DNA from: Takakia lepidozioides
Lineage: Eukaryota; Plantae; Bryophyta
NCBI GenBank assembly: GCA_030704615.1
Contig: CM060733.1
Location: forward strand, 24,800,001 to 24,864,000
Direction of reading: 5' to 3'
Length of the DNA: 64,000 bases
The position numbers were made by a program, and so were the translations under genes. The notes under the pieces were generated by a model. The model saw only the letters and a program-made list of their open reading frames with translations. It was not told the DNA's origin and searched no databases. Positions 3,378 to 64,000 of the stretch are shown here, piece after piece; position 1 is the stretch's first letter; each line of letters begins with the position of its first letter.

Positions 3378-3511
3378 CGATAGAAACTGCAGAGTGGCAA
3401 TGCCACATACGCAGTGTCCATCTTGATTCTTGTTGAAGGAAGATGAGGACAGATGAGTACAGTTGCCTCACTGCATGAATCCATGATGCAGAGCTGGTGA
3501 AGGTGGGAGAG

Positions 3512-22467: not shown

Positions 22468-22487
22468 TCTCTCTCTCTCCCTCTCGC

Positions 22488-25400: not shown

Positions 25401-25717
25401 ACACCCTCTTCAATTCCATCAAGGAAATTGTGCCTGTACCACTGTTTAACAACTTTGAAAATCTTGAGGCTGAGCCAAAAGCCCAGGCCCTTTTGGGGTC
25501 TAGCTATTGGGCAAATCACACACATCAGATTGATGCTTGTGTGAAGGGATTTCTGGAGAATATCTGGAAATCTCGGATCAACTGTTTATTCCAAGGTTAA
25601 TCATACTACCGGCGTCAGCCCCTGACAAAGGTAGTTTCTGTCCCTTTATGTTCCGTTCAAACTGGGCGCGGGGTCAATGGCCACAAGGCTACGGCAAACA
25701 ATGCCTTATGAGTACAA
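22488..25717 (+). mobile_element. LINE copy 2 of the same family, head-to-tail with copy 1
   Basis: Same domains, with an intact C-terminal Cys/His motif CPLCGQPEDNIHFLIHCP. Different 5' truncation point and different lesions from copy 1. Flanked by near-identical tctccctctcgctgtg (~22476-22491) and tctcctctcactgtg (25718-25732), a probable TSD. Confidence 0.93.
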
Positions 25718-27661: not shown

Positions 27662-30600
27662 ATGGAGCCACACCAGAATAGGGGGGCAGTGAAATTCTCC
27701 GTTGGAGCGTACATAACGACTCTCTCTCTCCTCCTTGCCTGCTTTGCCTTCGCCATCAACTGGAACAAGACGCCTCTTTTTTATTATGACCCCATCGAGA
27801 GCATGCTGGTGAAATGTGAGCGAGGTCTGATGCAAGATGGGCCCATCAACATCATGCCCGAGTACCCTGGATGGGCACTCCATTTGAATGACCCTAAAGT
27901 GCGTCTTTTTTCCTTCCAGATCATTATCTCAATGTCTGTGTTTGCCTCTTTGACATACACACATGCAAACACAATGCCAAACTCCATTTTTGTTTCTCCA
28001 CCTCTGTGAAAGTTAGAAAGTTCTATTATCTTTTGTTCTTGTTGTATTTGGGCTGCGTCGGACGCATCCTGCTTTCTCTTGTCCCGTAAGCTCTTCGAGT
28101 TTATGTCCATTTCCCTCATGTCATCTCTAGCGCAAGCGGGGCCCAAGCGGTCAGCACGTTGCAGGTTGTCCCATAAGCTCTGCAGTGCGTAGCTTCCATA
28201 ATGCAATGTGCTAATTTATATCATGATGAAGTTCTTTTTATCATAGTTTTGCCAAATGCCAAGTTGTTTTTTAGTCTCTTTTTCAAGGAGCATCTTGTCA
28301 GCATTCATGTGTCCTACATGTTGGCGTGATGGCTAGGATGCACTAGAAAAGATTGGGAGTGTCATTGCTTGCCCTTAAGCATTGAAGTATACTTTTAGGA
28401 GCAGAATCATCCAAGGGACAATTTAAGAGGGTACACTTATCTGGGGACTGGAGGGAGCATTGGACAGATCTGTGTTACAGCTACAACTGCATCGGCCATT
28501 GAGGACCTGGTGCCATGGATATTGTACCACCGTACCATAGGCGTGGCTTCCTTCTTCCTCTTTGTGGAGGGCCAGGCTGCATCAGCCCACAGCCGTGCTA
28601 CCCTCCAGAGTCTTCATGTAATCTCGCTCATTTCTTTCACTGTCGGTGTGTCCCCATTTCTCTTTTCCCTCTCTCTTCTCAGTTGTTTACCCACATTTCT
28701 CTGTTTGCTCTCCTCTCATTATGTCTTGACCAATTTCTACTTCCACAAATGGTCACAAAGTCATAAAGATGTCAAGCAAAGTCACAAAGTCATAAAGGTG
28801 TCCACCTTCCCATCAGAAGGCAGTAGTGCTTAACTTCGGGAAGAGTCCAAAAACAAACTAAAAAATACTTTGTCTGGCTCTCAGGATGTGTTGAGTTGCA
28901 ACACTGAAGAGAAATGTACCAATTTCATGGTAGGCATAGTAGCCCTCCAAAATTCGAGACATTGATGGTAGTCGCCGTGTCTATGATGTTTGTGACTATG
29001 TGCAAATTTTTATGAGATAAGAGCCATAGGAAGCGAAATTTATATGGGACAAGAAAAGTATGTGCCTTATTGACTAGGGAGGTCGAGGGCTGCACCTGTA
29101 ATGCATTGGTTGTGTTGTAGTTTGCAGGGGGTTATGTTGGTTACCAAAACCAAAAAACTGAAGAAGAAGCAGCAGCAAAGGTCCAGTTTTAACTACTCAG
29201 ACACATGATTTTTGTCAGATCTGATTTTCCTCTTGAAATGTAGCTGTTGAGGAATAATCCCTCCAACCTTGTAACGATGTAAATGTATATGAGTGGCTCT
29301 CGTACGACTGCTCTACTAACTTGAGCTGTTGGTGCTAGGACATAACAGCCGGCTATTGAAGGAGGCATGGATGGCCCGATACTTACACAGACCCTGCAGT
29401 TATGAGTCATTTGTCCAGAAGACTCTGGATATGGAAGTTGCAGTCACTCTTGCAAAGGTATGCCTGTCATGAAGGTTGGGGTCTGTGACATTTGAGAGAG
29501 AGAAATGTACTCATAAGACGTTGTTTGCTGTAGCCTTGTGGGCTGAACAAACGGGAGCAGAAACCTTTGTGGGGCTCACTCCGGTAGTGTGACTTAGTTT
29601 GAGAGAATGTACTCATAAGACGTTGTTTGTCGTAGCCTGGGGCCATTGACCCCGCGCCCAGTTTGAGTGGAACACAAAGGGATAGAACCTACCTTTGTCA
29701 GGGGCTGACGCTGGTAGTAAGACTTACCTTGGAATAAACAATTGATCCGGGTTTTCCAGATATCCTCTAGAAATCCCTTTACACAAGCAACCTGCTGTGT
29801 GTCGTTTGAGAGAGAGAGAGAGAGATCAAATGATATGTCAGTGTAGTGTGAATCAGCAACATAGGAGCATTTTGCTTGAGTGAGGCAAGCTCATAATTTC
29901 TCCTGTAAACTAAGACTGATTGGAAACAGACACTACCTTTGTGAGGGGCTCACTCAAGTAGTGGGACTTACCTTGGTATAGACAATTAGTTCGGGCTTTC
30001 CACAAGCAGCAATCTGCTGTGTTTGAGCTGCCCAGCATTAGACCCCAACAGGGCAAGTGCTTTAGGCTCAACCTCAAGATTTCGAAAGTTGGTGAACAGA
30101 GGTGCAGGGACTATGTTCTTGATGGTTCTGAAGAGGGTTGCTCCCTGATTAGAAGACGCTGGACATTGCATTAGAAAGTGGATATTGTCTACAGACCACG
30201 CGCCCAGTTGGGCAGAACAAAAGGGACCAGAAACTACCTTTGTGAGGGGCTCACTCCAGGGATGAAGAGAATGTACTCATAAGACGTTGTCCCAGGGATG
30301 AAGAGAGAGAGAGAGAAAGAGCATGTCCCTCATTTGATTAGACGATGCACATGGATAACACCTTTGTTACTTCCGGATGCATATCAAGCCATGGTTAGAG
30401 TAACAAGTCAGTACTTTATTTCTCAAAAACAAGCAGGGCTTGAGCTAGGAAGTGGGGGATAGAGGGCAGGCATGCAGTGGATTATAGCTATGGACGATGA
30501 CGAGCTGCTACACCCTGCTGGGGCCTTGACCTACTCCATCACATCTGTCCTTCAAACTGTTGACCGTCGCGTTGATGCTGTCGTCTTTCCAAATCATGTA

Positions 30601-38975: not shown

Positions 38976-41900
38976 ATGTCTGGCGTGCACACAGTGTATG
39001 GAGCACGCGATGTTGTAGAGGAGAGTGCTCTGAGTAATGGGTGTGCGGAAGGTTTGAAAGGGATCAGGCTCGATGTCCGTGAAGATGAGAAGGAGGACGA
39101 AAGCAAGAAAAAACCCAAAAGGAGGGGGAGGAAGAGCGTGAAAGTATCCTGGCATGGTGGAGCGATGCGGGTGCGAAGGACGTGCAGACGTTGGGGGATC
39201 ATTCTCGCCATAGCTGCCTGCTTGCTATTCTTCCTGGAGGTGCGCATTCTGTCTCCAAGTCGCTTGAATTCACCAAGTAAACCTACCACCCTGGTCTCTT
39301 CCCCTTTTTCCGGTGCTCCTTGGAAGTGTTTATCACTATTCTCTTTGGTTTAAACGGGAGATTGACAGACAAAGTCGACTCTGCACACAGATTTCCACGA
39401 GGGTACTTCTTTCCATGCCTAGATTTTTTCATGCGTGGAATGGGTGTAGGATGTACCTGAAGTATGGTATGCAAGTCTCTCTCGCTCTCTCTTTCTCTCT
39501 CTCTCGTATGGAAAGTCGACTGCTTGAAGTGCTGGCAAGAAGAGAATTCTGACGCTGTTTGGTCCTGTGGGCGTCATGGATTGTTCAGAGGACAATGCTG
39601 GGGACAACCATGGTCTCGGCAAGGCGAAAACGGTGCACAGCAACCTCAACAACTTGGACATGCCCACACGTATGGTTGCGGGCGTACACCAACGTAAGTT
39701 AGGCTCGCATTGGATGTGAGCACTGCTCGTGGCCTTTAGGGAGGTGGCTTATTGCAATAGCGAGTGTTAGTCGGAAGTAGATCACACTGGTACTGACAGG
39801 TTGATCCCCGTGGGGACTTGATACATTGATGTATCTGCCATTGCAGAATTCTGTCTGTTCTGTTGCACAACATGTATTTCAGCTGATAGTACATTGGAAA
39901 TGCATCTTGCGCTCTGTAGTCCCATCACAGGATTCTTATCCGGCCATTAGCTGGGCTTCTTCTTAGTGTTTGCTTGCTTTTAAAATTGTGACCTCCATTT
40001 GGTGCATGGTGTTGCATAATCATAGTCTGGTGTCTGTATTCAGCTTGCCTACAGTTGCTGCAAGACCATGAGATACAGTCACTGCAACTACCACCCCCAA
40101 GTGCGTCACCCGTGAAGGAGCTGCACTATTGGTCCGATGAAAGCTCTACTTTTTCTGGAGAGCCAACTATGGCTCAGCGATCAGCCAGCTTCCAGGTCAG
40201 GAGTCACTTTACCACTACCCTCCACCCCACCCTTTTTACACCACAGCACAATGCTCCCTGCTGAACCAAAAAACCTTAAACCCAAAGCACATGGCCCAGG
40301 CACATGCGCTCCCTAACCTCCTGCATCCCTACAAATGTGGGAGGCAGGTGAAGGACATAGAGGGGGGCTTCGTGCACATACTCTGATCGTACTCAGCCTC
40401 CTAGCCTCTTTGGTTAGTAAAACACTGTTTACTTAATTATTTTGATTGCAGATGATGGTGGCTATGGTGCTGTCTAGGTCTGCACAACAACAGGCATTGA
40501 GAGCAAGAGGCAGGCCAGGGTACTTTGCAGGTCCCTATTTACAGGGATGCGCTGAGGGACATAGGACGTACTTAAAAACCTCCTTTCACATACCTCCTAA
40601 CCTCCTCCATTCTGAGGATATTAGGATGCGCATCTTTAGGAAGGAGGTTGGGAGGCGAAGATGCACATGTGCGCCGGTTAACACCTTCCCTTCCCACCTT
40701 GTTCCTCTTCCTCTTTCAACCGCAGAACAGCCCTCCATGCTGAGTGAGTTCCTTGAATCTAGAGCACCAGGTTTACACTGGCTGGCTTCCACTTACACTG
40801 TAAAGCAATATCCAAACATGTCTGTCCAAGCTTCCATACTGGTGTCTGTGTCACCTGGCCACGAATGGCATCTTTGTTGCTTGAATGCTTGAAACGATGT
40901 AGGGTTGCATAGAGAGTGCCTTGTCTGTTAGACAGTCATCAGTTATGTCGAAGTGGGCTGAGGCAGGGTTGGTGGTTGTAGATGGAGGAAAGCATGGAGG
41001 TGCACTGTGGGTGGTGCGGTGGCGGCAGTGGGTTTGACATTGACGCTGTCGACAAGGCTTTTATGGACACATGTAGTGTGGTCATAGTAACATGTGCATT
41101 TGGGGGTGGCGATGATTTGCACCAGCCCATTGGCTACACCAATGCCTCTGTGGCCAAGGTGATTAACGTGGACTGCTTTGCTTCACCTAACCCTAGTTTG
41201 CTATTGCTGTCACTCCTTTTTTCATTAAGCATGAAGATTTCCAGTATGACTCCTTAATCCTTCATCCTTGAGATCTTTCTATTCCAGTGCAACCACTACA
41301 TTCATTTGAGAGGCAACTTCTGGACAGTTTGGCAGATGCTGTTCGAGACACTTTGGGAACAGGAAACCATGTTTCATCTTTTAAGATTGATGATATTGAT
41401 GATGACACTGATGGATTCAAGTAAAAACCAATATGGTCCACAAGTTTGTTGTAAGTTTGTTTGCGTCTCCAGTCATCAGACAGAAACTTCATGCTTCAAG
41501 CTGTTATCACAGACAGTGGACAGAGAGAGGCTACCACTATGTTTTCCAAACTGAATTTTTTCACTTGTTGGTGTTGTTTTTATTGTTCCTGGTGATGCGG
41601 AGCCTTCTATCAAACCAGCTCTCTGTTCCATTGTGAAGACCACATACATTTTGGACATCTGGACAGATTTCTGGATACTGAGAGACAATTTTGAACAAGG
41701 AAACCCTTTTGGACCAGTTTTCAACAAAGCTAACGAAGATTCTCGCTGGTAAAGCAGGTCTGCTATGTTGCATTCTGGGATGAGGTGACACAGGAGACAC
41801 AGGTGAATGCGGGTAATGATCCAGGTCCTGATCGCAGCATAGGGCTGTGGCGTATTGTGCTGGTCCACAATCTGCCCTTCGCTGACCAGCGCCGCAATGG

Positions 41901-44274: not shown

Positions 44275-45039
44275 AAGAACCACTTCACCTTCCGGCCCCT
44301 GCCCCCTTTCCACGGGTGGCGAGTGGGCTCTATAAATACCAGTTCCTGAGATTTTTCAGTGGAGACAGAACCAGGTTGCCTCTTGGTCCAGGGAAGGCCA
44401 CACTCCTACCTTATAAATATTAGTGTTGCAATGACCACACTGCCCTTAAATAGACTCCATAAAGGTCTCTCTTACCCCCATGCCATCCAGTGCCATACCC
44501 AGAACTAGCTCACACTAGATGCAAAATCCCAAGGCTGCCAAAAAGTGTACAGTCAGTCATGGTCCAAAACAATTGGTTCCTCTGAAGCAAAAAATCCACT
44601 GAACTTGAAGTTTGTATACAAGAACCCTCGAGTAGTGCTTAATTCGTCCGTCATGGCCAACACTTGTGCCCCACAAAGCTTACGGATGATCCCCAATAAG
44701 GTTGGGTATCTTTCTATCACTCTGCTATCAACACCTATCCAATTTGCAACACCATTTTCTGGGCTGCTTTAGTGGGAAAGGAGAAAAGGTGATGTCAGTA
44801 CCACATTGAAGCTCCAACCATTTCCTTTCTTGTCTGTCTGTCATCCTAGCAGTAACATGGGCCCGCCTCAGATTATCTGGTAGACTTGCAACTATGGTCC
44901 ACCATCCGTGCTAAAGGCTCTCTCAAACTAACAAACTTCAAATAAAACACCTCTTGTCCACATCAGTTGGCATTCCCACATCAGGTTCTTTCAGTCTGCA
45001 TGACCTCTGGCAATGGCTTGGGTAGTATGTGGGAAGGTA

Positions 45040-45470
45040 CATTTCTACCACTCGGATAATGTAACCGTTGGTGAAACACCTCTGCAATTTGGTCTGCGAA
45101 GTCAGGTCCCATCGGCTGATGAGGGAGGGATCTTCAGCACAGCAGACATAGATTGAGGTCACTGCACTTTCAACCACTACCAGTGTTGAGCCAACCTGCA
45201 GCATAGAGCAAGTAGATTTTGAGAAATTTCACACCAGAGGAAGAAAGATAAATTCATTAGACCATGCTCAGAGCTTTACAAAAGAAGGAAAAAAAGTTGT
45301 GTCCACAGGACGCCCAAAGCAAAACTGACAGACAAAGACCAACACAAAAATCAGGGGACAGTCAAGGCATCCAACCAGTATCATGCCCATGAGCATGGAG
45401 GTGGCGCCCACGACAGCCACACAGTCTCTATGCACAAACCATACCCAATGCCCACACAGGTTCCTGCACT
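45040..45470 (-). pseudogene. Plasma-membrane choline transporter-like (CTL/PNS1 family) 3' fragment, two frameshifted exons
   Basis: GTCVGI/(shift)VWFVHRDCVAVVGATSMLMGMIL, an intron, then VGSTLVVVESAVTSIYVCCAEDPSLISRWD/(shift)DFADQIAEVFHQRL. This matches the C-terminus of plant CTL-like proteins; the 5' part is absent. Confidence 0.7.
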
Positions 45471-45485
45471 CAGCAAGGATGTATT

Positions 45486-48400
45486 TTAGTTGTCAGATGG
45501 CTGTGTGAAGGGCCTCACATCCAAGGACCCCACTGACATTGGGTTTTCCACTGCTTGAGCATCCATAGGTGGCCCTAAATTGTGTGAACTAAAAGGACCC
45601 CCTCTTGATGAGCTTGAAGTAGTTGCTGTGGTGACATGTAGTGAAAGGCTGTGATTTTTACATAATTCTTCCGACAAAGAGCGGTGGGCTTCAGCATCTG
45701 GGATTTCTCGACATAGGCTTAGTTTGCTCTTTGTATTCAGATCACCTGCTTCTGGTAGTGGGTCTCTGGAAGAGCACAAACGCATGACTGGTGTCTTCTC
45801 TAAAGGCAGTGGGAGCTCATCGTCTCTAGGTGAGTCTTTAGAAGTGCCACCTACAGCTAATAGCAATGATTTTTCCAGTGAGACATTGGTATTCGGCTGC
45901 AGCTTGTGGGAGTTTTCTTTATCCCGAGTCTGCTTGCCTGGCTTGCTCAAGTTCAGAGTTGGTGACAGGCTCTCCATATTTGTTGCTGACTCATTCTCAG
46001 TCTTGTTGTCAGGCAGGAGCTTCTTGCTAGAATCTGAAGTCCTGTTAATCCCGAGATGGGACCTGGTGTGCATTGCAAATTCAGCTCGAACTTCATTACA
46101 AGTGGCGTGGGATCTCAGCTCACTGCTTGAAGATAAGTCCACTGAAGCCCTGTTCATGATTAAGAAAAAATCACTTCATGAGATGCTTAACTTGACCAAG
46201 TAAATGTGCATCCTCTCAAGGGTTGCTTTGGAGTGTGTAGCAAAAGTTCTACAACAAGAGTGCATACTAATCTGGCTTTAGATAAAATCTATGGAAAGCA
46301 AGCTGATACTCACTTCCTCTTCCGCTTTCTTCTGGCTGACCCTGTTGCAGCTTTGAGAAAGCAGTGTTCACCAGATAACTGACCTTCCACAGGCTCAGGA
46401 TGGGGTTCACTGCCCCCTCCCTTCTTCTCACAATCTTTTTCACCATCTCCTGCCTTCTTTTCACCAGCATCTGCAGACTTTCACCACACAGTGTTGGTGG
46501 AATGCATGGGACAGACAATACAACGTACCTTCCCAGCCTCTTGTTCAACAATACTCACCCCAGGAAGATGCCAATAACATTCATACTTGAGAAAGTTGAG
46601 GAAGGTAGAATCACACTGACAGAACAATGTGCATGCATCTGGTTCAATAACCTTTGGAGATAACCAAATGTTTGAACAACTTCTCCCTGATTCTGGTGAG
46701 GCAGATTATCATATGGAGAGTAAAACAGGTTGCAGATATGCTGAAGCGATGGCTGTAAAATATAAAACAGAAAAGAGAGCGATGAGACCACTTTGCTTTC
46801 CAGTCCTAGGATTCCTCCTTCCTAGACTTTTCAAGTTTCGAAAGAGTGGTGGAAGTCACCTGTGAGGGCTGCTGGTAGCCATCTGTTACTTGGATCCTCA
46901 AGTTTATAATGGTTGTCCAAACTCTTTCTTTCTGGCAGACTTACCAACAGGCCATGTTCCTCATTCTGATTGCCCCCACTCACCCTCAACTGGCTGCTAC
47001 CAGCTCCAGCCATAACATCCTCCATTCGTGGTGCGACATAAGAGCTCTCTTGAGATTCACCTGTGCCGGTGTTACTCAGTTGCCCTTCACCTGCCTTGCA
47101 ACAACTCACACTAGATTTTGGAACAGTTGTATCCATGTGCCCACAAGGTTTATCTGCCATATCTCTGGAAATCAGAGTGCAAATACTACACTGAGCTTCA
47201 ATCACCTTCCCAGTAGTCAGCCGCCCTGTACTGCTTCTGGTAAGATCTGTGAGGCCCACACTTCTACATTTGGAGTTATCCAGTTCAACAAATTGATTGC
47301 CCGTTGCTTGATTATGTGATGCTCTTTCTTGCTCGGTTTCTAACTCCCTACCAAACAATCTTCCTTTCAATCCCACTGTCAAAAGATTTGGAGGCAACAC
47401 CCCTTGTCCATCATAAACAATGTCTCTCACTGAACACTGCCCAGGCAGCCTCTCCTCTGAAGCTGACGAAGAGTTGTTCAGGAGGAACATATGGTCCACT
47501 GAAGAAGGAGATCCAGTTGTAGAGGATGGTGTCCTTCCAGGCGACATTGATCCTCCTCTGTAAGCTTCCAACGGCACACCTACTTCCCTTCTTCCAATAT
47601 CCCCATGGGCAAACTCTGAATTTCCTGAATTTATGAGGCTCAGTGGATACCCTCTACCACATACGTAACCTGCAAACCCAGTATCTGTTTCACACATTGC
47701 AGACAACTGTTCCTTGTCTGTCAGATGATGTGCTTCAATATCTCCAGACTTGGCTTCTGTTAACTCGTCTAAGCCCGCACATGGAGGAATGTCTTTTCTC
47801 TCAAGTATTCTTGACCCAGTTTCATCAAAATGGGTTTCATCACCAGATGTGCTAGCTTTGGGATCGGATTGTGTTGTGTGCTCCTTGTTGGATAAATTTA
47901 TGCCAGTCACAAGCTTTTGACCTTCACAACCCCAACTGGTCCTTTTCTCTGCCTGGCTTGCTTCACCTTTCTTCAACTTTTCCACGAATTCGTCCATTGG
48001 GCTGTGGCAGAAGGAAGAAAGTATAATGGGTCATTTTGAATCTGCACTTGAGCCGCATTGAGTGCATTTACATCTTTATCTAGTAAAAAATTCTGATAAG
48101 TAGATATTGCCCCCAACATCAAAGTTGTGGTGAAAAAGACAGCAGCCTTACCTAAAGCAACGCATGCCAGATCCACTCAGAAGACTGCTGATGCGCCGCA
48201 CAAGCTCTTGCTCCATTGCTACCCTGACCCGCTTGCCAAGTTTTGGAAGCACTTTGAGACAACCTTAACGTAGAGTTTTGGTAAAAATTATGCATTACTA
48301 TGTAAATAAGCAAACCTTTGTACATCAATGGTGGGCAAGCCCTTGAACACTGAATCTGCAGCACTGTAGGCAACTGCTTCACCGGGTCCTGGAACAGGGG

Positions 48401-48560: not shown

Positions 48561-48818
48561 CCAGCTGCATCATGCAGATAAGGAGGATAGCATGATCTTA
48601 CAGGAAAAGTTTGTCAGCTGCTAGCCGGTACACACCTTCCATTTTGAGTTCCTGGAGAAGCAGACCACCAGTATTCCATTAATTCCTACGACCTTCTGCC
48701 AAATTTGAAACTAGTAGAGAAGAGTGAGAGTGAAGCAACTTGTGTGTTCTACATTAAGCACCTCCCTCCCTCCCTCTCTCTCTCGTTATAAAATACCTTC
48801 TCTCTCTCTCTCTCTCTC

Positions 48819-49059
48819 AAAAGCCCAGGCCCTCCTGAGGCCTAGTTTTTGGGCAAATCACACACAGAAGATTGATGCTTGTGTGAAGGGATTTCTAGAG
48901 GATATCTGGAAAACCCGGATTAATTCTTTATATGGAGGTAAGTCTTACTACCAACGTCAGCCCCTGACAGAGGTAGGTTCTGTCCCTTTTGTTCCCGCTC
49001 AAACTGGGCGCGGGGTCAATGGCCACAAGGCTACGGCAAACAACGTCTTATGAGTACAA
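48819..49059 (+). mobile_element. ~240-bp 3' end of the (TC)n-targeting LINE
   Basis: Near-identical to 22227-22467 (about 3 mismatches by eye). Flanked on both sides by (TC)n. Confidence 0.93.
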
Positions 49060-51837
49060 TCTCTCTCACAACTGAGACAAGGAAATAGGAAAAGTAAGAC
49101 CTCAGCAAGGGTACCATTGACATCAATAAAGTGAAGCAGCATCTTTCCTCTGGCCTGTAACACAAATGAAAACATGACATCAGCAGAAATTATTGAGACA
49201 TTACAACCTTGTACCAAGTAATGCATCTGTTCCTGCAAATGAGACTTGCAAGCTTGGCTAGCTTTGCTGCCAGCTTGAGATTATGAAGCCCATCTGATGT
49301 CGAAAGAAAATCCCCAAGGAAAATTTAATGGCACTTCCACAAAGAGCCACAAACACTCTCAAAATAAGATCAGACATTTTCCCCAAAAGCCTCTCACTGG
49401 TGCCCAATATAGTTAATCAGAAGAGTCTTGTTACTAACAATCAATCAAACCTCCTATTCAAGTGTGCACCTGCATGATTTGGAGCTCAGTTTCCATCTTC
49501 CTAATTAACACTCCCCGTGCTTGATTCATCCGAGACATCTCAAGGCCTGCACACATAACCATGATGATCATCAAGGTGTCCTTGTTGCAGGAGAGCTCAA
49601 AGACAGTTCGTGTGGAGCAGTGATGGCTTGCCATACTCCGAAGACCAATCATTGAGTAAACAAGTCATAACATCATCAAATCAAAGGGCAGGTGGAAGTG
49701 GAAGAAGCAAACAGGAAGGGGTACCGATTGAAGGAATAGCAGGGACAAGTGAAAGTTCTTGGGCAAGCCATAGTGCATCCCAGGCTTCTTGCAAGGCCTG
49801 CAGCATACACAATCTTTTGATTATCATGCCCTCATAAAAACCATTTATCTGGTTGCAGTGAAGGGCTAGATCGAGATGCAAGGTCAACTAGCGGCCTTCG
49901 AGAAGATGTCAAATAGAACAGTTCATTAACTCGAGCTGTCATCCAGTAGTGGCGTAGGAAGCATCATTTGTTGGTCTAGCTCCCTATGTATCCTTTGTCA
50001 ACAACCCATGTTCCCTCTCTCCCCTGCCCACTTGCACTTTCTCTGCGCATAAGCAATGTTTCTCTAAGAATCCACATGCTATTCCTGCACTTACTACAAT
50101 CCCCTGACCTTCTGTCATCTAAGCCCTATCTGAATACATTATCAATTGGTGCATCCGTCTGCTAAAGACTGAAACAGACTATGGCAATGACAAAAGTGCT
50201 CCTCTATAAAGATGCAAGACCTGCTAACTTGTCTATCGAAACAAGACATTCCCATAAGGCTGATGTCTAGCATAAGACAGTGAAATCGAAAGGAGGACCT
50301 GAGAAGTTGATGCTATAGTCTCATAACTATTCAAGAGAAAGTCAAATGTGCCTGCTGACGCTGCCAATTCCATCATAACTTCAGCCTCACGACGATTTCG
50401 GACACTGCAAGGTTCCAAAGAGTCAAATCATGGGCTAGAAGGGCCTAAAAGTCTTGATTCCTGTCCTCGTTAGGAGACTTGCGATTACTCACACATACAG
50501 GAGGAGAGAGAGCACAACACATTAAGGGAGGAGAGAGATAACTTGAAAACCCCTCTCTGAAGACCAGGGCCTGCAAGAGTTCTGATATCCAGGACTCTAA
50601 CAACCTTCAGATGGTCAGAGGAGCTTCACACTTGGAGAATGGCATGGAAGGAAAGAAAGTGAAATATGCAAACTTCTTGTTTATATGGCATGCATGCACA
50701 TGCAGTCAATAATACCCTCTGGCAGGTCGATTTTACAGAGGTGACGAGACAGATGGGGGGGCAAGAGGGATCAATAGAACTGTTCATAAAAGCATCCTAA
50801 GAGTAGATTGATCTTAATGACAGTACGTCATTTGAGTGTCACTAGACCTGTGTAAAGGTACAATTATGAGTGCATATTTTGATTAAAAATGTACCCTGGA
50901 AAATCCTGCACATACAAACAATCTTTAGTGGACAAATAGTAGAGCAGGATAGCAAACATCATGCTTCAGCCGTGGTCTCAAAACAGACTGAAAACTCCGC
51001 ATGCTCTCAGACAAATTCACCTCCGTGCAACAGAGAACTTGACAATATGCCCTTAACCTTGCCAACCACTATCCAGGGTACTTTTGGCAAAATTTTCGGA
51101 ATCGCAGATTGACTCCAACACTGAAAGTTTTAGGACCGTGAAACTCACAAAAACTCCTGCCGCAGAATTTCAGAGGAAAGTAAAGCCAACCATGATGCAA
51201 AAGAATAGCGTACCGTAAGACCAGTACATCCACAGGTACACTGAGCACTCTTGCTATTGAAGACTGCAGGTATGTCTCTTGATCCAAGTTGTATCCTTCT
51301 GATTGCTCCCGTAAGAGTACATCTCCAGCCGATTCCTGGAGGTGCACGTGCAATCACCCAGCGCATCTAGGGGTTTCAGGTAAGAGATATCTTATAAATG
51401 TAACATCTCTTTCTACGATAATATGTGGATTGCACAGCATCACAACGACAGTCATTCTTCCTCTGTGGCGTTGAAAGCGATTAACTTGCACTGCGGCAAA
51501 CCCTTACAATCAAACGCCGGGAACAAGAACAGACCATCAAACGTGATCGGAAGGCAGATCCGGGACGCAGACATGAATGTCGTGGAGGAAGGCAGATCCC
51601 TGAAAATTCCCCAAAACATCACGCACCACATTTGTACCACATTCCCGCCATACCTAGCTTGTCAACTACACCATCTTCAACGGAAACTAAAATGCAGGCG
51701 TTTAATCCGTCGGTACTTTCGCCGGATTCAGGCAGCGCCCCTGTCAAATCCTCCCCACCCCTTTTGGATAGGAGACAAGGCGAAGTGGCTCTTAGTCTCG
51801 TCAGAGTTTCTCTTTTAGATTCCTTTGTGCATTGACG

Positions 51838-55190: not shown

Positions 55191-55228
55191 GTTTGGCGAG
55201 ACTGCAGTTTGTTCTTTAGTTAGTTAAG

Positions 55229-56130
55229 ATGGAAGGCACATTTGCGGAAATGGTCACCACATTGCAGAGTCTTCAGCTCCAGATGCAAAAACTTCGTGTC
55301 TCTACTGCCCAACTACAAGCTAATCAGTCTCAAGACCTTGGCAATGCTCTCAACAATTTGCAACAACAAATTTCAGAGTTGAAGGAGTCGAACAATAGAT
55401 CTTCAACCTTACGAGTCCCTACTACAACAAATCATACTGCAACGGTTCATCCAAATCTTCAACAGATTATAAGGGAACCAAAGGTCAGCATGCCCGAGAA
55501 ATTTGATGGGACGAGATCAAGATTTCGCGGTTTTGTTCAGCAAGTACGATTGTTCCTACGACTACATCCACAACGCTACTCTGATAAAGATATTCAAGTG
55601 GGATTTGTGGGCACCTTTCTATCAGACACTGCCCTATCTTGGTTTGCACCGCTATTAGAGAAAAATTCGCATTTACTATACAATTTTGAAGCGTTCATGT
55701 CCGAGTTCACTGCAACGTTTGGAGAGAATGATAGAGAGAGAAATGTAGAGACAAATATGCGAAATCTTCGACAAGGAGCACGTCCAGCTTCCGTTTATGC
55801 TACCGAATTTCGACAACTTGCGTGCGACCTTGACTGGAATGAGAAGAGCCTCATTAGTCAGTTTCGATGTGGCCTAAAAGATGATGTTAAAGATTTGTTG
55901 TTGACAATGCCAAACGTGAGTACACTGAGCGAATTCATCACCCAAGTCATTGCATGCGATAATCGTTTGTTCGAAAGACGTCAAGAGAAGCGATCCGGAT
56001 GGTCGACGACGCACCATGTCGCTGCTACTACGGCACCAAATACAACGATCCATCAGACATCCGGTAATGATCATATGCATCTGATGCTGTCCGATTCAAG
56101 CCATTGACGCCACATGAAAAACAAAGACGG
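55229..56130 (+). CDS. gag: Retrotransposon Gag (PEG10/sushi/Tcn1-like), truncated
   Basis: PEKFDGTRSRFRGF, LSDTALSWF, LRQGARPASVYATEFRQLA and LDWNEKSLISQFRCGL. After a frameshift it continues DAVRFKPLTPHEKQRR and is cut off at ~56130, before the zinc knuckle. Confidence 0.9.
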
Positions 56131-56217
56131 CTGTCGTGCACCTAAGCATCATGCCACAACATACATCGCTGTCCACCACACAATCTAAGCACACAATCCT
56201 AGAAAGCTATACCACAA

Positions 56218-56725
56218 TGATAAGAGATGAGAAATGAGAGAAGTAGAAGACAATGAAAGCTCTCAAAGCATGAAGCAATCACATGAAGAACAAGCCCTAG
56301 TCCTTCCAAGTGAAATCCACTCTATCACATAAACTAAGTCAAGCCAAGGGCACCTTTGCTAAATGAATCCACCCTACAAAGCCCTCAACACACTCCCTCT
56401 CAATACCTAGAGCTATGGAGGTGAGAGAAGCTCATGGAGGCTCAACTACAAGAAGATGAGCCTCCTCAACACTCACAAGGGGAAAACCTATCTCCATGTC
56501 TCAAGTGAGGCTCGACACCTCACTTGGCATGTGAGACCAAATGAAGTCCCAACACACAAAATATAAATATAAATATCTAAAATGTCCTAGTTAACTAGAA
56601 GTAGGTAATTCTAGATAACCACGACTAAAACCATGACAGCTGTCATGCACCTAAGCATCGTGCCACAACATACATCGATGTCCACCACACAATCTAAGCA
56701 CACAATCCTAGAAAGCTATACCACA
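56218..56725 (-). repeat. 3' LTR (508 bp) of the DNMT-carrying element
   Basis: Minus strand TGTGGTAT...CTTATCA, immediately preceded by a purine-rich tract (TTGGGGGGCGAT; plus strand 56726-56737). Confidence 0.8.
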
Positions 56726-56982
56726 ATCGCCCCCCAAGCTGGTGGTTAGGTCCCTCTAACTCCAGATAGCTACAAGATGTAATAGCCACAGCCGTACTAA
56801 GTCCTCTATCACTGTCCCTATTGTACTCAAACTCTATAGACCAAGAGGCCGGGTACAAGAGCAACCCCATCGTTAGTTGCCGTCTTGCAATCTGTGAACT
56901 TGAGTCAGGATCTCGTGTGTTGGTCTCCTAGTAGCTTGGCCTTGCATTTCTTGTTAGCATTCCATGGTTGTATCCACTCCCA

Positions 56983-57130
56983 CTATCCAATGCAATACGG
57001 ACATAACCAATCCCCATCAGGAACCATCTCAAGAGGTGGAGTCAAGCATCCCATATGCCAACCTCTAGAGCATCGATCACACACCAGCATGGTGGCTGCC
57101 CCTCTAGCAGACCCACTCAACATGCATTTC
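56983..57130 (-). CDS. PHD finger at the integrase C-terminus
   Basis: CMLS...MLVCDRCSRGWHMGCLTPPLEMVPDGDWLCPYC fits C4HC3 with the second Cys replaced by Ser. In frame with the integrase across one TGA at 57220. Confidence 0.9.
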
Positions 57131-57219
57131 AAACTTGCAGATACCACTGCCAGGTTTGGGTCAATCCTGCCATTGACATTCGGAAGGTGACATGGCACAC
57201 AATTATGCACATGGTCCTT

Positions 57220-58294
57220 TCAAATTATGCCATCCCAACCCTCCAAGACCAAGACGCCTGAGGGCAAAACCTCTCGAACCCTCAAAATAACACGTCCTGC
57301 AGTCACATCCAATGTCGTAGGAGCAGTCTGCTGCAGATAGACATAGTCACCAGGGTTGAATCTCCGAACCCCAGGACGATAGCCCCCACCACGTATGGTA
57401 GCATACCTCAACGTATCACGATGTTGTGCAATGGCAAGGTTCTCGAAAGCCATGGGCATGACTTTCTTGAACAACTCTGCACGCTGCTCACATGCACGTG
57501 CCCACACGTCCGGATCGTCAAGGTTAAGAACTGTAGTAGCTTCTCTGCGAATGGATGTAGGCAAATCCGGCTCTCGGCCAAAGAGAAGAAAGTATGGTGA
57601 GAAGGAGGCAAGTGATGCTTGCTTGCTGAATCTATAGCCCATGGCTAACCAGGGTAACTGAAAGTCCCAATCTCCTAGGTGTCCCTTCTGCAAGCCATAC
57701 TTGCGCAAACCCCTCTTTACTGTCTGAACAACTCTCTCTGTCAAGCCATCGGCCTCAGGATGATCCCGAAGAAGTGGTGCGGTGGTCTATCAAGGCCTTG
57801 TCATACAAAGCCTGAAACTCCCCCAAGAACTCTCTCCCTTGGTCCGTGAGTACCTCAGCTGGAGCACCGAATCGGCTAAGCACACAATCCAAGAATACAT
57901 ACGCAGCTCCCTCACTAGCCTTATCAGGCAATGGAACCAACTCAATCCACTTGGAGAAGTGCTCCACCATCACCAACACGTACTTGTTGTGGCGCATGGT
58001 CAGTGGCAACGGCCCTGCGAAGTCAAGACTCCACCTGTAGCCCAATCCCATGATCGGAAGAGGGTGCAATTGTGGAGTAGGGGCGTTGAATGAAGCACGC
58101 ACCCTGTCACACACCATGCACCTAGCCACAAATTGTTGCACCTCTGTGTGCATACCACGCCACCAATACTGCCCCTGCAGTAGACTATGAGTGCGTCGCA
58201 TCCCAAAATGCCCCAACTCCTCATGGGCATGCCGTACTAACCGTGCCCGCTGTGTCGGGTGAGGCACAATCCTCACTCGACCATCCTCCCACAC
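57220..58294 (-). CDS. Integrase (HHCC + DDE core + C-terminal module), frameshifted
   Basis: HEELGHFG..CMVC, WSLDF, VLTDQG, (frameshift) DHPEADGLTER, SPYFLLFGREP and RFNPGDYVYL. Confidence 0.95.
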
Positions 58295-58548
58295 TCGGAG
58301 CAGGTGTGTCCCCTCTACTTGAACCTCTTGGCTCGTTGTAGGATCCGATCCCTCTCATTGGCAGTCATAGTGGCTGCAGTGTCTCCAGTGCGGAGGTAGT
58401 CCAACACAACTGAATCCTCATGTATATCTTTGGCGCCACCTTGCTCATTGCTGGCCTCAGGGTCCTCAGACACTTGATCTACAGTCATCCCTGTTGCAGG
58501 TCCAACCTGGCCTTCCGCTGCCAAGATACACAGAAATGCAGATGCATG

Positions 58549-59952
58549 TCATCCGGGCACCATCTCCTCGTCCGTCTCACCATGCCACCAAGCTCCAGTG
58601 TCATCCTGCTGGCTCGTGCATGGATTGCATCTCAACCCATCTGCATTGCGATTGACCAAACCCGGTCGATGCACCACCTGAAAGTCATACTCTTGAAGGA
58701 TGAGTACCCACCGTGCAAGCTTCCCCATAAGCTTATCTGACTCCATCAACCACTTGAGTGGTTGGTGATCCGTGACAAGGGTGAAGAGATTGTCGTATAG
58801 ATAGCACCTGAAGTGTGCCACGGCCCACACTGCAGCTAAGCATTCTCCCTCATATGAGCTATACTTAGACTCTGCAACGTTGTTTGATCGGCTAGCATAA
58901 GTCACTACGAACTCTCTTCCCTCATCATCCACCTGTGTGAGCACCGCTCCAAACCCCAGCATGCTCCAATCTGTATGCAGCTGAAAAGGACGCCCCCTGA
59001 TAGGTCGTCTCAAGATGTGCGCCGAGGTCAACCTCGCCTTGAGCTCTTGAAAAGCTTGTTCTTGCTCATCTTCCCACTGCCACTCCTGGTCCATCTTGGT
59101 CAGCTTGGTTAGAGCCTTTGCAATGGCACTAAATCCCTTAACAAACTGTCTATAATAGTTTGCTAACCCCATGAAAGCTCGAACTCGGCTCACATCCGTG
59201 GGGCGTGGAACCTGTGCAATGGACTCTACCTTGGTCTGCTGTACCCCCAATCCTCCAGGATATATCATGTGACCCAGATACTCAATCTGGTTGTGGAAAA
59301 ACTTGCACTTTCCCGGATGTAACTTCAATCCGTGCGCCCTCAAGCACTCAAATACCCCCTGAAGGTGTCTCTCATGCTCTTCCACCGCAGCACTAAAGAT
59401 GATGATGTCATCTATGTAGCACCAAGCAAACTCCACCCCTGCTAGAATCCTGTCCATGACTCTCTGAAACTCTATCGGAGCGTTATTAAGCCCAAATGGT
59501 AAGAACCGCCACTGGTATAGGCAATCCTTCCCGTGCTCATTGATCCCCCAGAATGCCGTCTTTTGCTTATCCGCCTCCTTGATCGGCAACTGGTGATATC
59601 CGGATCGTAAATCCAACGTGCTAAAGACCTTGGCATGCCCAATGGCATCAAAGATCTCCTCTGGTGTTGGCATGGCATACCTATCGGTCTGACGATTTAC
59701 AGGCTGGTAATCACCGCACATACGTCTCTCCGTCCAATTGCCAAAGACATCATTCTTGGCTGGCATCACTGTGGCTGAAGCATACTCTCCCCCAGATAGC
59801 TCCACCAAACCAGCCTCCCAAAGGTCCTGAGTTCTCATCTGAATCAAGGACCTCTCCATGTCACTGTATTTATAGGGTCTCCAAAAGATTGGCGTGTCAG
59901 TAGCCAATTCAATGCGAATCTCTTGACCTTTCAGTGCTCCTAAGTCCTTCAA
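58549..59952 (-). CDS. Reverse transcriptase + RNase H
   Basis: RMCGDY, FSTLDLRSGYHQ, LPFGLNNAP, YIDD, YLGH; RNase H LHTDWS, EGECLA, VTDHQPL, NADGL. Confidence 0.97.
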   Translation of the reverse strand: MKDLGALKGQEIRIELATDTPIFWRPYKYSDMERSLIQMRTQDLWEAGLVELSGGEYASATVMPAKNDVFGNWTERRMCGDYQPVNRQTDRYAMPTPEEIFDAIGHAKVFSTLDLRSGYHQLPIKEADKQKTAFWGINEHGKDCLYQWRFLPFGLNNAPIEFQRVMDRILAGVEFAWCYIDDIIIFSAAVEEHERHLQGVFECLRAHGLKLHPGKCKFFHNQIEYLGHMIYPGGLGVQQTKVESIAQVPRPTDVSRVRAFMGLANYYRQFVKGFSAIAKALTKLTKMDQEWQWEDEQEQAFQELKARLTSAHILRRPIRGRPFQLHTDWSMLGFGAVLTQVDDEGREFVVTYASRSNNVAESKYSSYEGECLAAVWAVAHFRCYLYDNLFTLVTDHQPLKWLMESDKLMGKLARWVLILQEYDFQVVHRPGLVNRNADGLRCNPCTSQQDDTGAWWHGETDEEMVPG

Positions 59953-60419
59953 ACTGAAGGCAAAGCAATTCCTGTAAGCCCTTAGGAACCACCGTATACG
60001 TCGTCTCTCTCCTCCGGTGACAATGGGTCCAATGTCAGGCTCCCAATTGTCCTCCGTAACTGCAACCTTAAGTCCAATGGGCTTAGAGGTAGAGGACGCG
60101 TCCCGTGGTTGCTATGCCGCAACCTCTTGAGCAGTACTCCCTGCCTGCTCAGTCAATGACAAGGCCTCATCCTGCCCCATCATCTCATCCTTGAGGACCT
60201 CATCAACCCGAGAAGAATCCCCAACCTCATCCATCACAGCTGCCTTGGCTGCCAACTCCTTCTGAACCTCGAGCACCTCCCATGTGTGCCATGGATGCGG
60301 CCTGCACCTCGTGGTCCTCACCTGCTCGCCCCCACTCGCTGCATGTACTGTCTCGGTAGGCAGGGAGACCATGAAGGGAAGTGTACTCCGTACTTTGCGC
60401 TGCTCGGCCATAGCCAAGC

Positions 60420-61365
60420 TGATAATCCAGGTCAAGCAATTGAGATCCATTGCTTGTCCCAACACCTGACGACGTGATGCCTCAGAAAGAGATAGCACCG
60501 CCGTGGTACCAGTAGTAAAACCCATCGCCCGCTCACGCTCGTCAGCATTGGGCTCCACTAATTGTTGCAACTGGCTATCCCACAAGAGGCCAGGTCCACC
60601 ATCCCGAAAAGCATGGGATCCTGGGAAGCTGAGCAGTGTAGATAATGCTGCTCATGGTTGACCCACCCTGTTGACCACTGCCAAAGGCGAACGGTCATCG
60701 TGTCTCACACGTTGAGACTGCCTCCCTGTGTCCAAAATGCTATCCACTGTGAGGTGTGCTGGCCGCTGCACCCCATCAAATGCACGCTTGAGCAGTGCGG
60801 GTGGCATCAAGTTAGTCCACCATAGCCGTGGACGATGAGCCCATGACCCCACTGCAGCTGCATCCAACAACACTGCTGACCCAAGCCACGACCGGACTTG
60901 ATACCCACTGGCCATCAACCTGGCCCGAGAATCACCCATCAGTGGCACATTCTCCAAGATGTATGCTGGAGATACAGCTTGGTGAAGTTGCAAGTGGCGC
61001 AAAATCCACACCATCTCCCAAAACAGACCCGTCCTCGAGTCTCGCAATCCATTGTCATGCCCGGCTGATGAATGCCCTTGGCAGGGCCAACCTGCCACTA
61101 CCAGATCAATGGAGCCAACCCGCTCCAAATCCTGCGCCCCCAACAACGAAATGTCTGCTGGCAAGGCTTGTTGGTATCCACGAACTGCAGACACTGGCAA
61201 CAAATCAGGGTACTGCTGTACCAACTAAGCAACATGGCGCAGTGAGACGCGTCGTGCAGTCTCATCTCTCTCCACATACAGGTAACGTCGAACTCGTACA
61301 CCTGCCTGCAGTACTGCAGCCAATCCAGTGCTGATCCCGCCAAACAAGTCCAGAAGACATATGCC
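60420..61365 (-). CDS. C5 cytosine DNA methyltransferase domain (DNMT3-like) embedded in pol; two in-frame stops
   Basis: Motif I LDLFGGISTG, II YVERD, III ADI, IV DLVVAGWPCQ (catalytic Cys), V RTGLFWEM, VI ILENV, VII/VIII LDAAAVGSWAHRPRLWWTNL, IX ERERAMGF and X RRQVLGQAM. ORFs 61225..61869, 60652..61224, 60112..60585 and the RT ORF all share one reading frame. Confidence 0.92.
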
Positions 61366-61779
61366 TTCATCCGGGCACTGCCACACAAGAGGTGTGGTGT
61401 CCAATGGCGACAACTGAGGTGGTCCTGGTGCAATCACCGCACTCTCCTCTTCTCCTGATGGTACGAAGGCCTCTACCCAGGCTTGTTGTACCCGTCCATC
61501 AGCAGTCTGCTGCAAATCCTTGCTCGTACCCCATAATGGAGTGTGAGCAACCATGGCAGGCAACTCCGCCGTACCATGCATGTCATCCTGCTCTGCTGGA
61601 GGTGGCACATCCTCTGCATGGGCATTGCCTTCCAGCAACTCTCTAGGCCAACTAATTGCAGCTGTAAAGGCGGCTAGTGTTGGCATCTTGCCCCGCTGGG
61701 CAGCCACAATACCCCCAATGAATGTCACAGGGAGCTGTGCACGACGACCATCCCCTGACTGCCATCCAGGCCTGTAGGA

Positions 61780-62030
61780 TGCTGACTCCTCCCAAAAGTA
61801 CAGGGTGAAGCCCATGGGATATAAAACTGCCCCACCAACAAGGACATCGTAAGAGACCGCATCTGTCACACCGTGTCATGCCCCGAGCCTGCTCTGATCC
61901 TCCCAGAGATGTCTATATCTGGAAAGGACAAGGCTCCATATCCGCCTCCATGAGGCCCAAACTTGCAATAGCAGCTCTGCCCAACATCAGTGGCTGAGCT
62001 CATGAGTCCAACAAGACCCGCAGTGGCCAG
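61780..62030 (-). CDS. Aspartic protease remnant
   Basis: RVLLDS*AQPLMLG (D-S-G with the Gly codon now TGA at 62000-62002), then after a frameshift/deletion YDVLVGGAVL. Confidence 0.75.
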
Positions 62031-62164
62031 TACTTCTTGCATGCCGGTCCACTCAAACAGAAAATGCCTCCCTGGTTGTCTAACAAGACAACTCCAGGTG
62101 TCACCATGGCGCGCTCAAAGGCTGGCCTAGCTGGCAGCTCCGTCAACCTGGCAGCTGCAGCTTG

Positions 62165-63250
62165 TCATGGCGCAGCCGTGGCAGTCTTGACCCTCAAATC
62201 CGAGGATCCCTCAGCCACTACACCTTTCAGTAACTCCGCAGAAGATGAAGTGACCTCCCCACTCTCAAAGAGTGTTGCTGCTAGTCTGAACACTGCAACT
62301 GGTCTTACCCCCGGCGTCGAAATCATGGTTGCCGAGAACAGTGGGGCTTGACACACAGAGGTGGCTGCCCCCAATAACACACCGGCTGCACTAGCCTTGG
62401 TAGTGGGTGTCAGTGCTGCATGTGTAGTTCTCCCCAATGGCATAGTAACCTCCGCCTCGGTAACAGCCGGGCGAGAACTAGGTGCCATGGATGGCGTCGA
62501 CACTGTCTCTGCCAATGTGAATGACTGAGGAAGCCTCGCTTGACGGCTTGCCTCCCCACGCTGTGGATCCAATTCCACCTCTGCACCTCGTGGCTCAGGA
62601 ACTCGTGCTGCTCCTCGAGTCACGGCTGCAGCAGACTCCACCTGCACTAGTGGTAGTGCTGCTCCGCACATGAATCCCATGCCTCCCATATCTCCTCCCT
62701 CAGGAACACGAGGTGGACCATCCCGCCTGGGAGCCGGTACCACCTGAGCTGTAGCCATGGCAGCGAGCCTCTGCTCTAGCTGCTGAAGCCGGTTGGCCAT
62801 GTCTTGGTCAACACCCTGACCTCCGCGTCCTTGGCCATGTTGAGCTTGCCCTTGGCCTGCACCTCGTGCCCGACCACCTCGTCCTCTCTGGGCTGGTCCA
62901 CCTCGCCCCCGGCCACCATTGTTCCCTTGGAACTGGCCTGGGCGCAACTCAGGGTGCAAGTCATAACACTGGGCATCTCCATGCCCATACTTGCCACAAT
63001 GCCCACACTGCAACTGTGCAGGCTGTGCTTGTACCGGCCTTCTGCCACTCTCTGGGCAATCTCTCTTGACATGGGCTCCTCCACATGTCCAACATATCAC
63101 CCCTGGTTGCTGATGGCCTGCAAAAGGTGCCACGGGCCTCTGCACCTGAGGTCCCCTGTAAGCTCCATGGAACTTGGGTTGGGCAACCTTGCCCCCCTGA
63201 CCACGCTGTTGGGCAGTCCCTTGTACTACATCTCCTCCATCGTGTCCCAC
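62165..63250 (-). CDS. Gag nucleocapsid region with two zinc knuckles and an RGG-rich tract
   Basis: CWTCGGAHVKRDC and CGHCGKYGHGDAQC, followed by GGRGRGG repeats. Same frame as the protease across a TGA at 62165. Confidence 0.85.
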   Translation of the reverse strand: MGHDGGDVVQGTAQQRGQGGKVAQPKFHGAYRGPQVQRPVAPFAGHQQPGVICWTCGGAHVKRDCPESGRRPVQAQPAQLQCGHCGKYGHGDAQCYDLHPELRPGQFQGNNGGRGRGGPAQRGRGGRARGAGQGQAQHGQGRGGQGVDQDMANRLQQLEQRLAAMATAQVVPAPRRDGPPRVPEGGDMGGMGFMCGAALPLVQVESAAAVTRGAARVPEPRGAEVELDPQRGEASRQARLPQSFTLAETVSTPSMAPSSRPAVTEAEVTMPLGRTTHAALTPTTKASAAGVLLGAATSVCQAPLFSATMISTPGVRPVAVFRLAATLFESGEVTSSSAELLKGVVAEGSSDLRVKTATAAP

Positions 63251-64000
63251 AACAATGGCACGGAAATGACTTGCACCCTCGGCGAGAATCCTCCTGACTC
63301 CGAGTCTGAACCTTCCTCAGAAGACACTGAAGGTGAAAGTGGCCTAAACCGCACACCTTGTCTTGTGTACCCACTAGTATCGCTGGTGCTTGTACCGGCA
63401 CTCCCCTCAGCAGCTGGTGGCACCTCCGTGATGAAAACTCACAACCCAACCGGTTGTCAACCTGTCTCTAATCCCCACTTTCTACAAGGTAACCGGGTAA
63501 AGAACCTGTTGCGGCTACTGGTTCAAGCAGGAATAATAGGTTTCTAACGTAGACCTGTACCTGCACCTGCATCCACCGCAAGCACTCTTATGGTCTGCTG
63601 GTCATCAACCCAGCCTCACCATAGAAGAAACACTGGTGGTCTTGCTGGTCATCACTCTAGCCTCACCACCGACAGCATACTCTAGGATTGGCCGGTGATC
63701 AAATCCGGACCAACCTCCTATGAAAACAAGCGCCCACACAAAGCTAACATGGCGCATAGTCAAGCATGCAGGTGTGGAGGGGATCCAAACACAAGAAAAT
63801 CAAGACAGCAACTCCCCCACACCAAAAACACTCCACAGTGTCGCTCCTGCAAGGACACCCCAGCCCAAACCCGGACTGACTCTTGCCTCCACCTACGGAA
63901 AGGTTTTGGCCTACAGAGAGGGTGAAAGACTATGGAGAAGAGAAACTAAAGCAATTCCTAACCCCAGAATGCTCTCATCCCACCACTCTCCCTCCTGTCT

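Follow-up and report, generated by a model that had tools for sequence, protein, structure and literature searches.

A Gypsy retrotransposon family of bryophytes with a DNMT3-like methyltransferase upstream of a conserved, probably leaky stop codon

The 64,000-nt stretch of Takakia lepidozioides DNA analyzed in this study (assembly GCA_030704615.1, contig CM060733.1, positions 24,800,001 to 24,864,000; hereafter the window) harbors a decayed Gypsy retrotransposon on the minus strand (63240–56132), in which all domains from a gag remnant to a PHD finger were recognized, among them a DNMT3-like C5 cytosine methyltransferase (DNMT). The assignment to Gypsy is based on the order of protease (PR), reverse transcriptase (RT), RNase H (RH), and integrase (IN), on a Gypsy-type RT, and on a DDE integrase. 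For the intact second open reading frame (ORF2) of a relative, L046, Ty3 Pol was the top match in the PDB. A chromovirus was ruled out, as a PHD finger takes the place of the chromodomain and intact ORF2 stops just past this finger. A DIRS element was rejected on account of the rve (DDE) integrase and the target duplications, DIRS elements being marked by a tyrosine recombinase and the lack of a DDE integrase.

All element features described below lie on the minus strand, except for the strandless palindrome. The 5' leader (63241–64000) is covered by sister contigs up to the edge of the window, and the 5' repeat (A1) should lie farther out; in four relatives, A1 begins 1465–1500 nt upstream of gag. 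The gag remnant (62966–63240) retains a start codon at 63240 and two zinc knuckles (63094–62966), and its capsid region is mostly deleted. ORF1 of Marchantia can be aligned to the window copy only from its residue 256, at 63229, and sister contigs have loose ends at 63227, in line with this deletion. The aspartic protease (61831–62017) of the window copy gave no Pfam match and was located by alignment to relatives and by its LLDS motif; stops interrupt it, and a deletion near 61870 is accompanied by a frame change. It is followed by the DNMT (60415–61362), the last ORF1 domain, by a conserved ORF1 stop in a UAG-CAR-YYA readthrough-type context (60106–60114), and by a predicted long RNA stem about 10 nt past the stop (59998–60101), a candidate stimulator of readthrough. 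ORF2 comprises the RT (59250–60051; YIDD at 59418; RVT_1, E 6e-31), RNase H (58621–59076; PF17917 and PF17919), the integrase (57334–58258; HHCC, D at 58033, D at 57847, and E near 57740), and a terminal PHD finger (56986–57126; PF00628, E 2e-10). The PHD finger had not been named in the initial annotation. Besides the deletions near 63227 and 61870, the copy carries frame changes near 58317 and, within the integrase, near 57770.

The 3' end consists of a polypurine tract (56728–56735; the same G-run lies upstream of B1 in relatives), repeat B1 (56641–56727), repeat A2 (56219–56638; assigned by position from relatives having both A1 and A2, namely L001, L017, L022, and L043), and repeat B2 (56132–56218), which is 94% identical to B1 and ends in the right terminus. 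A palindrome spans the B/A junction (56632–56647). The initial annotation, made from the window sequence, had ended the element at 56218; its 3' end reaches 56132, and the 5' repeat lies outside the window.

The methyltransferase motifs were found in canonical, unpermuted order: I (LDLFGG, 61353), IV (GWPCQG, 61092–61075), VI (ENV, 60960), VIII (HRPR, 60840), IX (ERAMGF, 60555–60517), and X (RRQVLGQ, 60474–60439). Together with a PF00145 match (E 6e-12), this bears out the initial annotation, which had placed motifs I–X here. The proposed likeness to DNMT3 was likewise upheld. In a PDB sequence search, all 30 matches were DNA methyltransferases with DNMT3A on top (E 2e-9), and a structure model of the domain of relative L001 (predicted local distance difference test, pLDDT, 75) resembled DNMT3A and DNMT3B best (template modeling score ~0.67). 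Identity to DNMT3A was about 22%, and the target-recognition region was poorly modeled. A search of the ESM Atlas returned generic PF00145 clusters only, mostly from phage. By motif order, nearest characterized sequence, and modeled fold, the domain appears to be of the DNMT3 type, with the catalytic Cys and ENV present. A fragment of a host DRM or DNMT3 gene was rejected as its identity. As had been noted initially, the domain is intronless and in frame with the C-terminal part of the protease and with the RT; two stops interrupt it, at 61227 and 60654. GWPCQG is invariant in 16/16 aligned domains, and EN(V/I) and RxR are conserved among domains of just 45–50% identity. The observed/expected ratio of CG was 0.42–0.77 in the elements and 0.38 in the remainder of the window; since CG is no less depleted outside the elements, its depletion is no sign of self-methylation.

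The element, apparently a high-copy one, belongs to a large family. In run X1, 79,437 contigs matched it at ≥80% likeness, a depth that is no copy number, and covered the DNMT without a gap; one 5009-nt contig from another organism runs from the DNMT to the 3' end. Protein searches with about 8,000 candidates each yielded 199 and 58 relatives, and 456 clusters reached E < 1e-30 in a profile search. A metagenome scan gave 198 confirmed stretches, 80 of which were kept for analysis; the order gag-PR-DNMT-RT-RH-IN-PHD is repeated in these, and the position of the DNMT is the same in dozens of loci. Named relatives (best 65–74% identity) came from the liverworts and peat mosses Marchantia polymorpha, M. 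paleacea, Calypogeia fissa, Riccia sorocarpa, and three Sphagnum species, in agreement with the extension to land plants that had been suggested. None of the matches listed was named Klebsormidium. Five intact Marchantia ORFs of 1278–1281 residues are annotated as host genes, Mp4g09160 being an example of a natural intact DNMT domain; further Marchantia candidates are Mp5g06330, Mp5g06860, MpVg00370, and MpVg00540. No relative was found in viral contigs, and a single contig with a relative among GTDB genomes was read as contamination.

The ratio of nonsynonymous to synonymous substitution rates (dN/dS) of the DNMT was 0.09–0.12 between the window copy and eight Sphagnum-type loci (dS 2.0–2.6) and 0.08–0.14 in five of the six pairs of L046, L050, L053, and L081, the sixth pair being saturated. 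For the RT, dN/dS among intact loci was 0.04–0.06. Close Sphagnum-type pairs gave DNMT values of 0.50–0.95, which we read as post-insertion decay. In the DNMT tree, the window sequence fell into a 13-row clade with liverwort and Sphagnum sequences (Shimodaira–Hasegawa-like approximate likelihood-ratio test, SH-aLRT, 100), and the RT tree had the same clade and shape; both trees come from quick searches, SH-aLRT being the only measure of support, and the DNMT tree is limited to retroelement domains. These results show the DNMT to be a family feature that is under purifying selection and is co-inherited with the RT.

The relation of the DNMT to the polymerase was assessed at the stop codon between them. 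The RT start was available in 64 of 82 sequences, and stops were counted in the 50 with an RT identity >50%. An in-frame stop was found 14–24 codons upstream of the RT in 48/50; in L054, the same stop lies behind a nearer decay stop (49/50 in total), and L029 is without it. The stop is followed by CAR-YY in 44/48 sequences and by the exact CAR-YYA in 7/48, including the window copy; in the remaining four, a second stop stands in place of the CAR codon. Among 157 decay stops serving as control, CAR-YY followed two and CAR-YYA none. At 60112–60114, sister contigs of three runs showed no majority difference (all 38 rows). Loci L046 and L081 are unbroken: Gag-PR-DNMT is followed by a single TAG and then by 1047 same-frame codons encoding RT-RH-IN-PHD. 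The first Met past the stop is residue 117 in these two loci, inside the RT, and residue 85 in the window copy. The reading frame is maintained through the stop in every lineage. Furthermore, 26 of the 32 long PR-DNMT proteins, the five intact Marchantia ORFs included, end 94–163 residues past motif X. A 3' stem was predicted in four of five sequences (z −2 to −4).

Judged by this conservation, the stop at 60114 is a family feature and not decay, and it is likely to be read through only occasionally. The initial annotation had regarded the DNMT as an integral pol domain interrupted only by point stops. The domain is indeed an integral, selected part of a Gypsy element and has two stops of its own; however, it ends ORF1 (Gag-PR-DNMT), the conserved amber stop at 60114 separates it from the RT, and the copy also contains deletions and frame changes. 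Because the DNMT lies upstream of this stop, it would be made with Gag, in amounts far exceeding those of RT and integrase.

UAG-CAR-YYA is the readthrough signal of tobacco mosaic virus (TMV), and wild-type viral contexts give 9–32% readthrough in a plant reporter (PMC2754532); 3' stimulatory stems occur at other readthrough sites (PMC3159437). The present site resembles TMV-type readthrough in the stop, the six-base context, the predicted downstream stem, and the polymerase as extension (PMC2754532, PMC3159437), but this candidate site follows a protease and a DNMT in a retrotransposon.

The repeats of the family are split. The window copy ends in polypurine tract-B1-A2-B2, the complete arrangement A1-coding-B1-A2-B2 was found in L017, L022, and L043, and L007, L045, and L057 have the form A-coding-B. 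The latter three loci contain zero repeats and retain the target duplication; such copies would escape finders of long terminal repeats (LTRs). The unbroken frames sought by the initial annotation are present in L046 and L081, split only by the conserved stop, but twin equal LTRs were not found, B being present at 0/14 left ends in relatives. In 11 sequences, including the window, the B/A junction is a palindrome with a 2-bp center, the halves of which equal the left (TGTC) and right (GACA) termini of the element. Target duplications of 4 bp were found at all six two-ended loci (exact in five, one mismatch in one), and relatives combine TG..CA termini with a 4-bp duplication. The window contains no tRNA genes, and by-eye inspection found no tRNA-type primer site 3' of A1. 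In five of six loci, the bases following A1 are complementary over 9–16 nt to a site inside A (positions 156–170 in four); self-priming elements use such internal complementarity (PMC6317226). Retroviral integrases can cleave palindromic circle junctions (PMC4372172). Split repeats, palindromic junction, and 4-bp duplications point to an integrase that would open a circular intermediate. In L043 (10838–10857), additional bases were observed at the A2/B2 join, as expected from imprecise end ligation.

We favor, with a probability of roughly 0.6, a Gypsy family with a Gag-PR-DNMT ORF1 and a probably leaky amber stop before RT-RH-IN-PHD, in which the DNMT would be an abundant product that enters the particle and likely methylates new cDNA. 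The transcript would begin inside A and prime its own reverse transcription. The RT would produce (B-A)-coding-(B-A), the ends would be joined into a circle, and the DDE integrase would cut this circle at the built-in B/A palindrome, inserting A-coding-B-A-B. Copies of the form A-coding-B may arise if a circle has one repeat only, if it is cut twice, or if B recombines with B afterward. Most likely, the protease would release the DNMT in the particle, where it would methylate the cDNA. The nearest solved structures to the PHD finger of the element are those of CHD4, PHF12, KDM5A/B, ATXR5, and PHF21A. PHD fingers of the CHD4/KDM5/ATXR5/PHF21A type bind unmethylated H3K4, like the ADD domain of animal DNMT3, and the finger may direct insertion to chromatin without H3K4 methylation. 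The new copy would arrive pre-methylated and be hidden or restrained by the mark.

Several observations weigh against this reading. The 50 sequences represent about four independent lineages and are mostly repeat samples of a Sphagnum-like plant. This Sphagnum-like lineage has CAR-YY-C instead of CAR-YYA, and TAA replaces TAG in 12 of the 48 CAR-followed stops that were counted. Such a stop is absent from a sister family of 14 loci, and the DNMT is fused to the RT in other relatives, such as P0197 and P0243. The stem of L001 was no better than shuffles (z −0.35), and the cross-lineage stem alignment retained just six pairs with thin covariation. The dS values against the window copy are near saturation, and the Marchantia relatives are represented here by their proteins. 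As to integration, A-B-A-coding-B, the mirror product predicted by the circle model, was seen at 0/14 left ends, and at the three best-preserved loci the palindrome is present, yet B-A-B is not seen (contig ends or a collapsed circle). Finally, the Sphagnum-like lineage has an ATG two codons 3' of the stop, and L053 a Met at residue 14 past it.

These nearby starts would suit an ORF2 translated by reinitiation at an adjacent AUG or from a spliced RNA, an explanation that we consider unlikely and under which the DNMT would still be the abundant ORF1 product. Some Marchantia and Sphagnum gene models do splice across the junction (P0127, P0128, P0132, and P0163), and the Ogre element has an intron at the GAG-PROT/RT boundary (PMC6317226). 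However, the spliced models are mutually inconsistent and derived from broken copies. Readthrough is favored by the frame unbroken over the stop in all lineages, by the conservation of CAR-YY(A) despite saturated synonymous sites, and by the distance of the first Met, which is residue 117 in L046 and L081 and residue 85 in the window copy.

No more probable is a DNMT that, though abundant, works chiefly in trans, with the donor copy, competing elements, or host chromatin as its targets in the nucleus. Production at the level of Gag would yield much more enzyme than one cDNA requires, and the host DNMT3s of mosses are de novo CG/CHH methylases (PMC6453930). Against this, long-term selection on a retroelement domain is explained most simply if the copy that makes the enzyme benefits, and no chromatin-reading domain was detected in ORF1. 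It is improbable to a greater degree that the domain was retained for DNA or RNA binding or for particle structure, with little catalysis. The Klebsormidium enzyme KnitGypsy-Dnmt3 failed to methylate yeast DNA, a result regarded as inconclusive by its authors (PMC5890265), the low identity to DNMT3A and the poorly modeled target-recognition region would fit such a role, and dN/dS of the DNMT is above that of RT and integrase; yet the catalytic PCQ is invariant, and EN(V/I) and RxR persist where the domains have diverged to 45–50% identity. The idea that the window copy alone picked up part of a host DNMT3 gene, for which only the broken state of this copy speaks, is refuted by the same DNMT position in dozens of loci, the continuous sister-contig cover, the 5009-nt contig, the 456 clusters, and a dN/dS of ~0.1. 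None of the outcomes that the initial annotation had named as refuting was observed, and the domain is integral to the element, as it had proposed.

A wider reading, which builds on self-methylation of the cDNA, is put forward tentatively, as possible rather than probable. It would make these elements an old, green-lineage-wide Gypsy group with DNMT3 at capsid stoichiometry via a leaky stop of the plant-virus type, default circle integration at the palindrome by a DDE integrase, PHD guidance, and intact ORFs in Marchantia polymorpha that are annotated as host genes.

The kind of element is already known. KnitGypsy-Dnmt3, described in 2018 from Klebsormidium nitens only (de Mendoza et al., PMC5890265), has in common with the present family the Gypsy domains, an intronless and non-permuted Dnmt3, purifying selection, and DIRS-like A-coding-B-A-B repeats. 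Layout and domain features as published, rather than the K. nitens sequence, form the basis of this comparison and support the kinship that the initial annotation had envisaged. In KnitGypsy-Dnmt3, the DNMT is described in the ORF of RT and RNase H, whereas here a conserved stop lies between them (PMC5890265). The accessible text on KnitGypsy-Dnmt3 mentions no PHD finger, palindromic junction, target duplication, or land-plant host, and the figures may show domain order or a PHD finger (PMC5890265). SymbioDIRS-Dnmt3 similarly combines a retroelement-borne Dnmt3 with split repeats, and its enzyme methylates CG de novo in yeast, but it has a tyrosine recombinase and a DIRS RT in place of the DDE integrase and Gypsy RT found here (PMC5890265). 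The EpiLTRs of Cymbomonas and Euglena also pair a cytosine methyltransferase with a chromatin reader in an LTR element; they carry a DNMT4-related enzyme, DAM, and a chromodomain, in contrast to the DNMT3-type enzyme and PHD finger of the present family (bioRxiv 10.64898/2026.05.21.726589). The same source names "streptophytes (Gypsy-DNMT3)" without detail, and retrotransposon DNMT3 in "streptophytes" is mentioned in PMC12344493, the accessible text of which does not name land plants. The B/A junction resembles that of retroviral 2-LTR circles, a palindrome whose cleavage yields CA-3' ends; circle cleavage is a side route in human immunodeficiency virus and foamy virus (PMC4372172), whereas in the present family the repeat itself contains the junction, the use of which appears to be the normal route. 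Chlamydomonas Gypsy-7a and REM1 share a PHD finger in a green-lineage Gypsy element, but no methyltransferase or split repeats are described for them in the accessible text (PMC9940879).

The accessible text of PMC6453930, PMC9033089, PMC9940879, PMC8557442, and 10.1101/2021.11.30.470311 does not describe these elements. Land-plant range, readthrough, PHD finger, and integration logic were not found in the literature searched, the coverage of which left out most subscription journals, including probable genome papers. New aspects are the occurrence in bryophytes, including intact ORFs in a model plant; the conserved leaky-type stop placing the DNMT in ORF1; a chlorophyte form that carries the DNMT between RNase H and integrase; and the logic of integration by palindrome and circle.

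The role of retrotransposon-borne DNMTs has been open since 2018, the hosts being hard to work with; the intact ORF1 copies in Marchantia polymorpha make the question testable in a genetic model. If self-methylating, the element would lay down the marks for its own silencing with no need of targeting by the host. The position of the stop implies that the enzyme is required in bulk, which would change the published picture of a Pol-fused DNMT. The structure of the repeats, the TG..CA ends, and the duplications suggest routine use of the circle junction by a DDE integrase, a route long regarded as a side path in retroviruses. As they have no twin LTRs, the elements have probably been overlooked by LTR finders; they have probably also been mistaken for DNMT genes of the host and wrongly assigned to bacterial genomes in binning.

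Further forms were observed among the relatives. A second, divergent DNMT-Gypsy family (L061–L080, ~40% identity) has the same B-A-B ends and palindrome; no CAR-YYA stop was found at a shared position in it, and it is too decayed for its gag/pol boundary to be located. The DNMT lies between RNase H and integrase in 78 of the 95 long relatives (P0165–P0174 and P0239–P0373), so the domain has occupied two positions; one cluster with this RNase H-DNMT-integrase order comes from the chlorophyte Hariotina reticulata. A Gag-DNMT protein is present in Closterium. Intact or partial elements also lie inside records labeled as cyanobacteria or relatives (L081, P0019, and P0433), which probably reflects eukaryotic contamination of bins.

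Next to the element, the Gag of an unrelated Gypsy element (55220–56107, plus strand; Retrotrans_gag, Ty3_capsid) extends as far as the right terminus of the DNMT element and stops there; the DNMT element therefore appears to be nested in this other element. Elsewhere in the window, a multi-exon, intron-rich GH38 alpha-mannosidase gene (3479–15430) and an exon of a TOD1/MUCI70 glycosyltransferase-like gene (40982–41254) were found on the plus strand. A search with an alpha-mannosidase exon returned no match, and an Atlas search with the TOD1/MUCI70 exon yielded no score of 0.9 or more. The intron-rich genes, the LINEs, and the grouping of the DNMT element with those of bryophytes suggest DNA of a bryophyte or other non-seed plant. 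Two tandem LINE-like copies, labeled as such by eye and 83–91% alike, occupy 18982–25725 (plus strand), and their 3' end recurs as short copies at 29638–29789 and 48818–49067. Another LINE RT lies on the minus strand (686–1864). Open frames of 229 and 399 codons with smaller exon-like pieces (44941–48030, minus strand) form a putative host gene.

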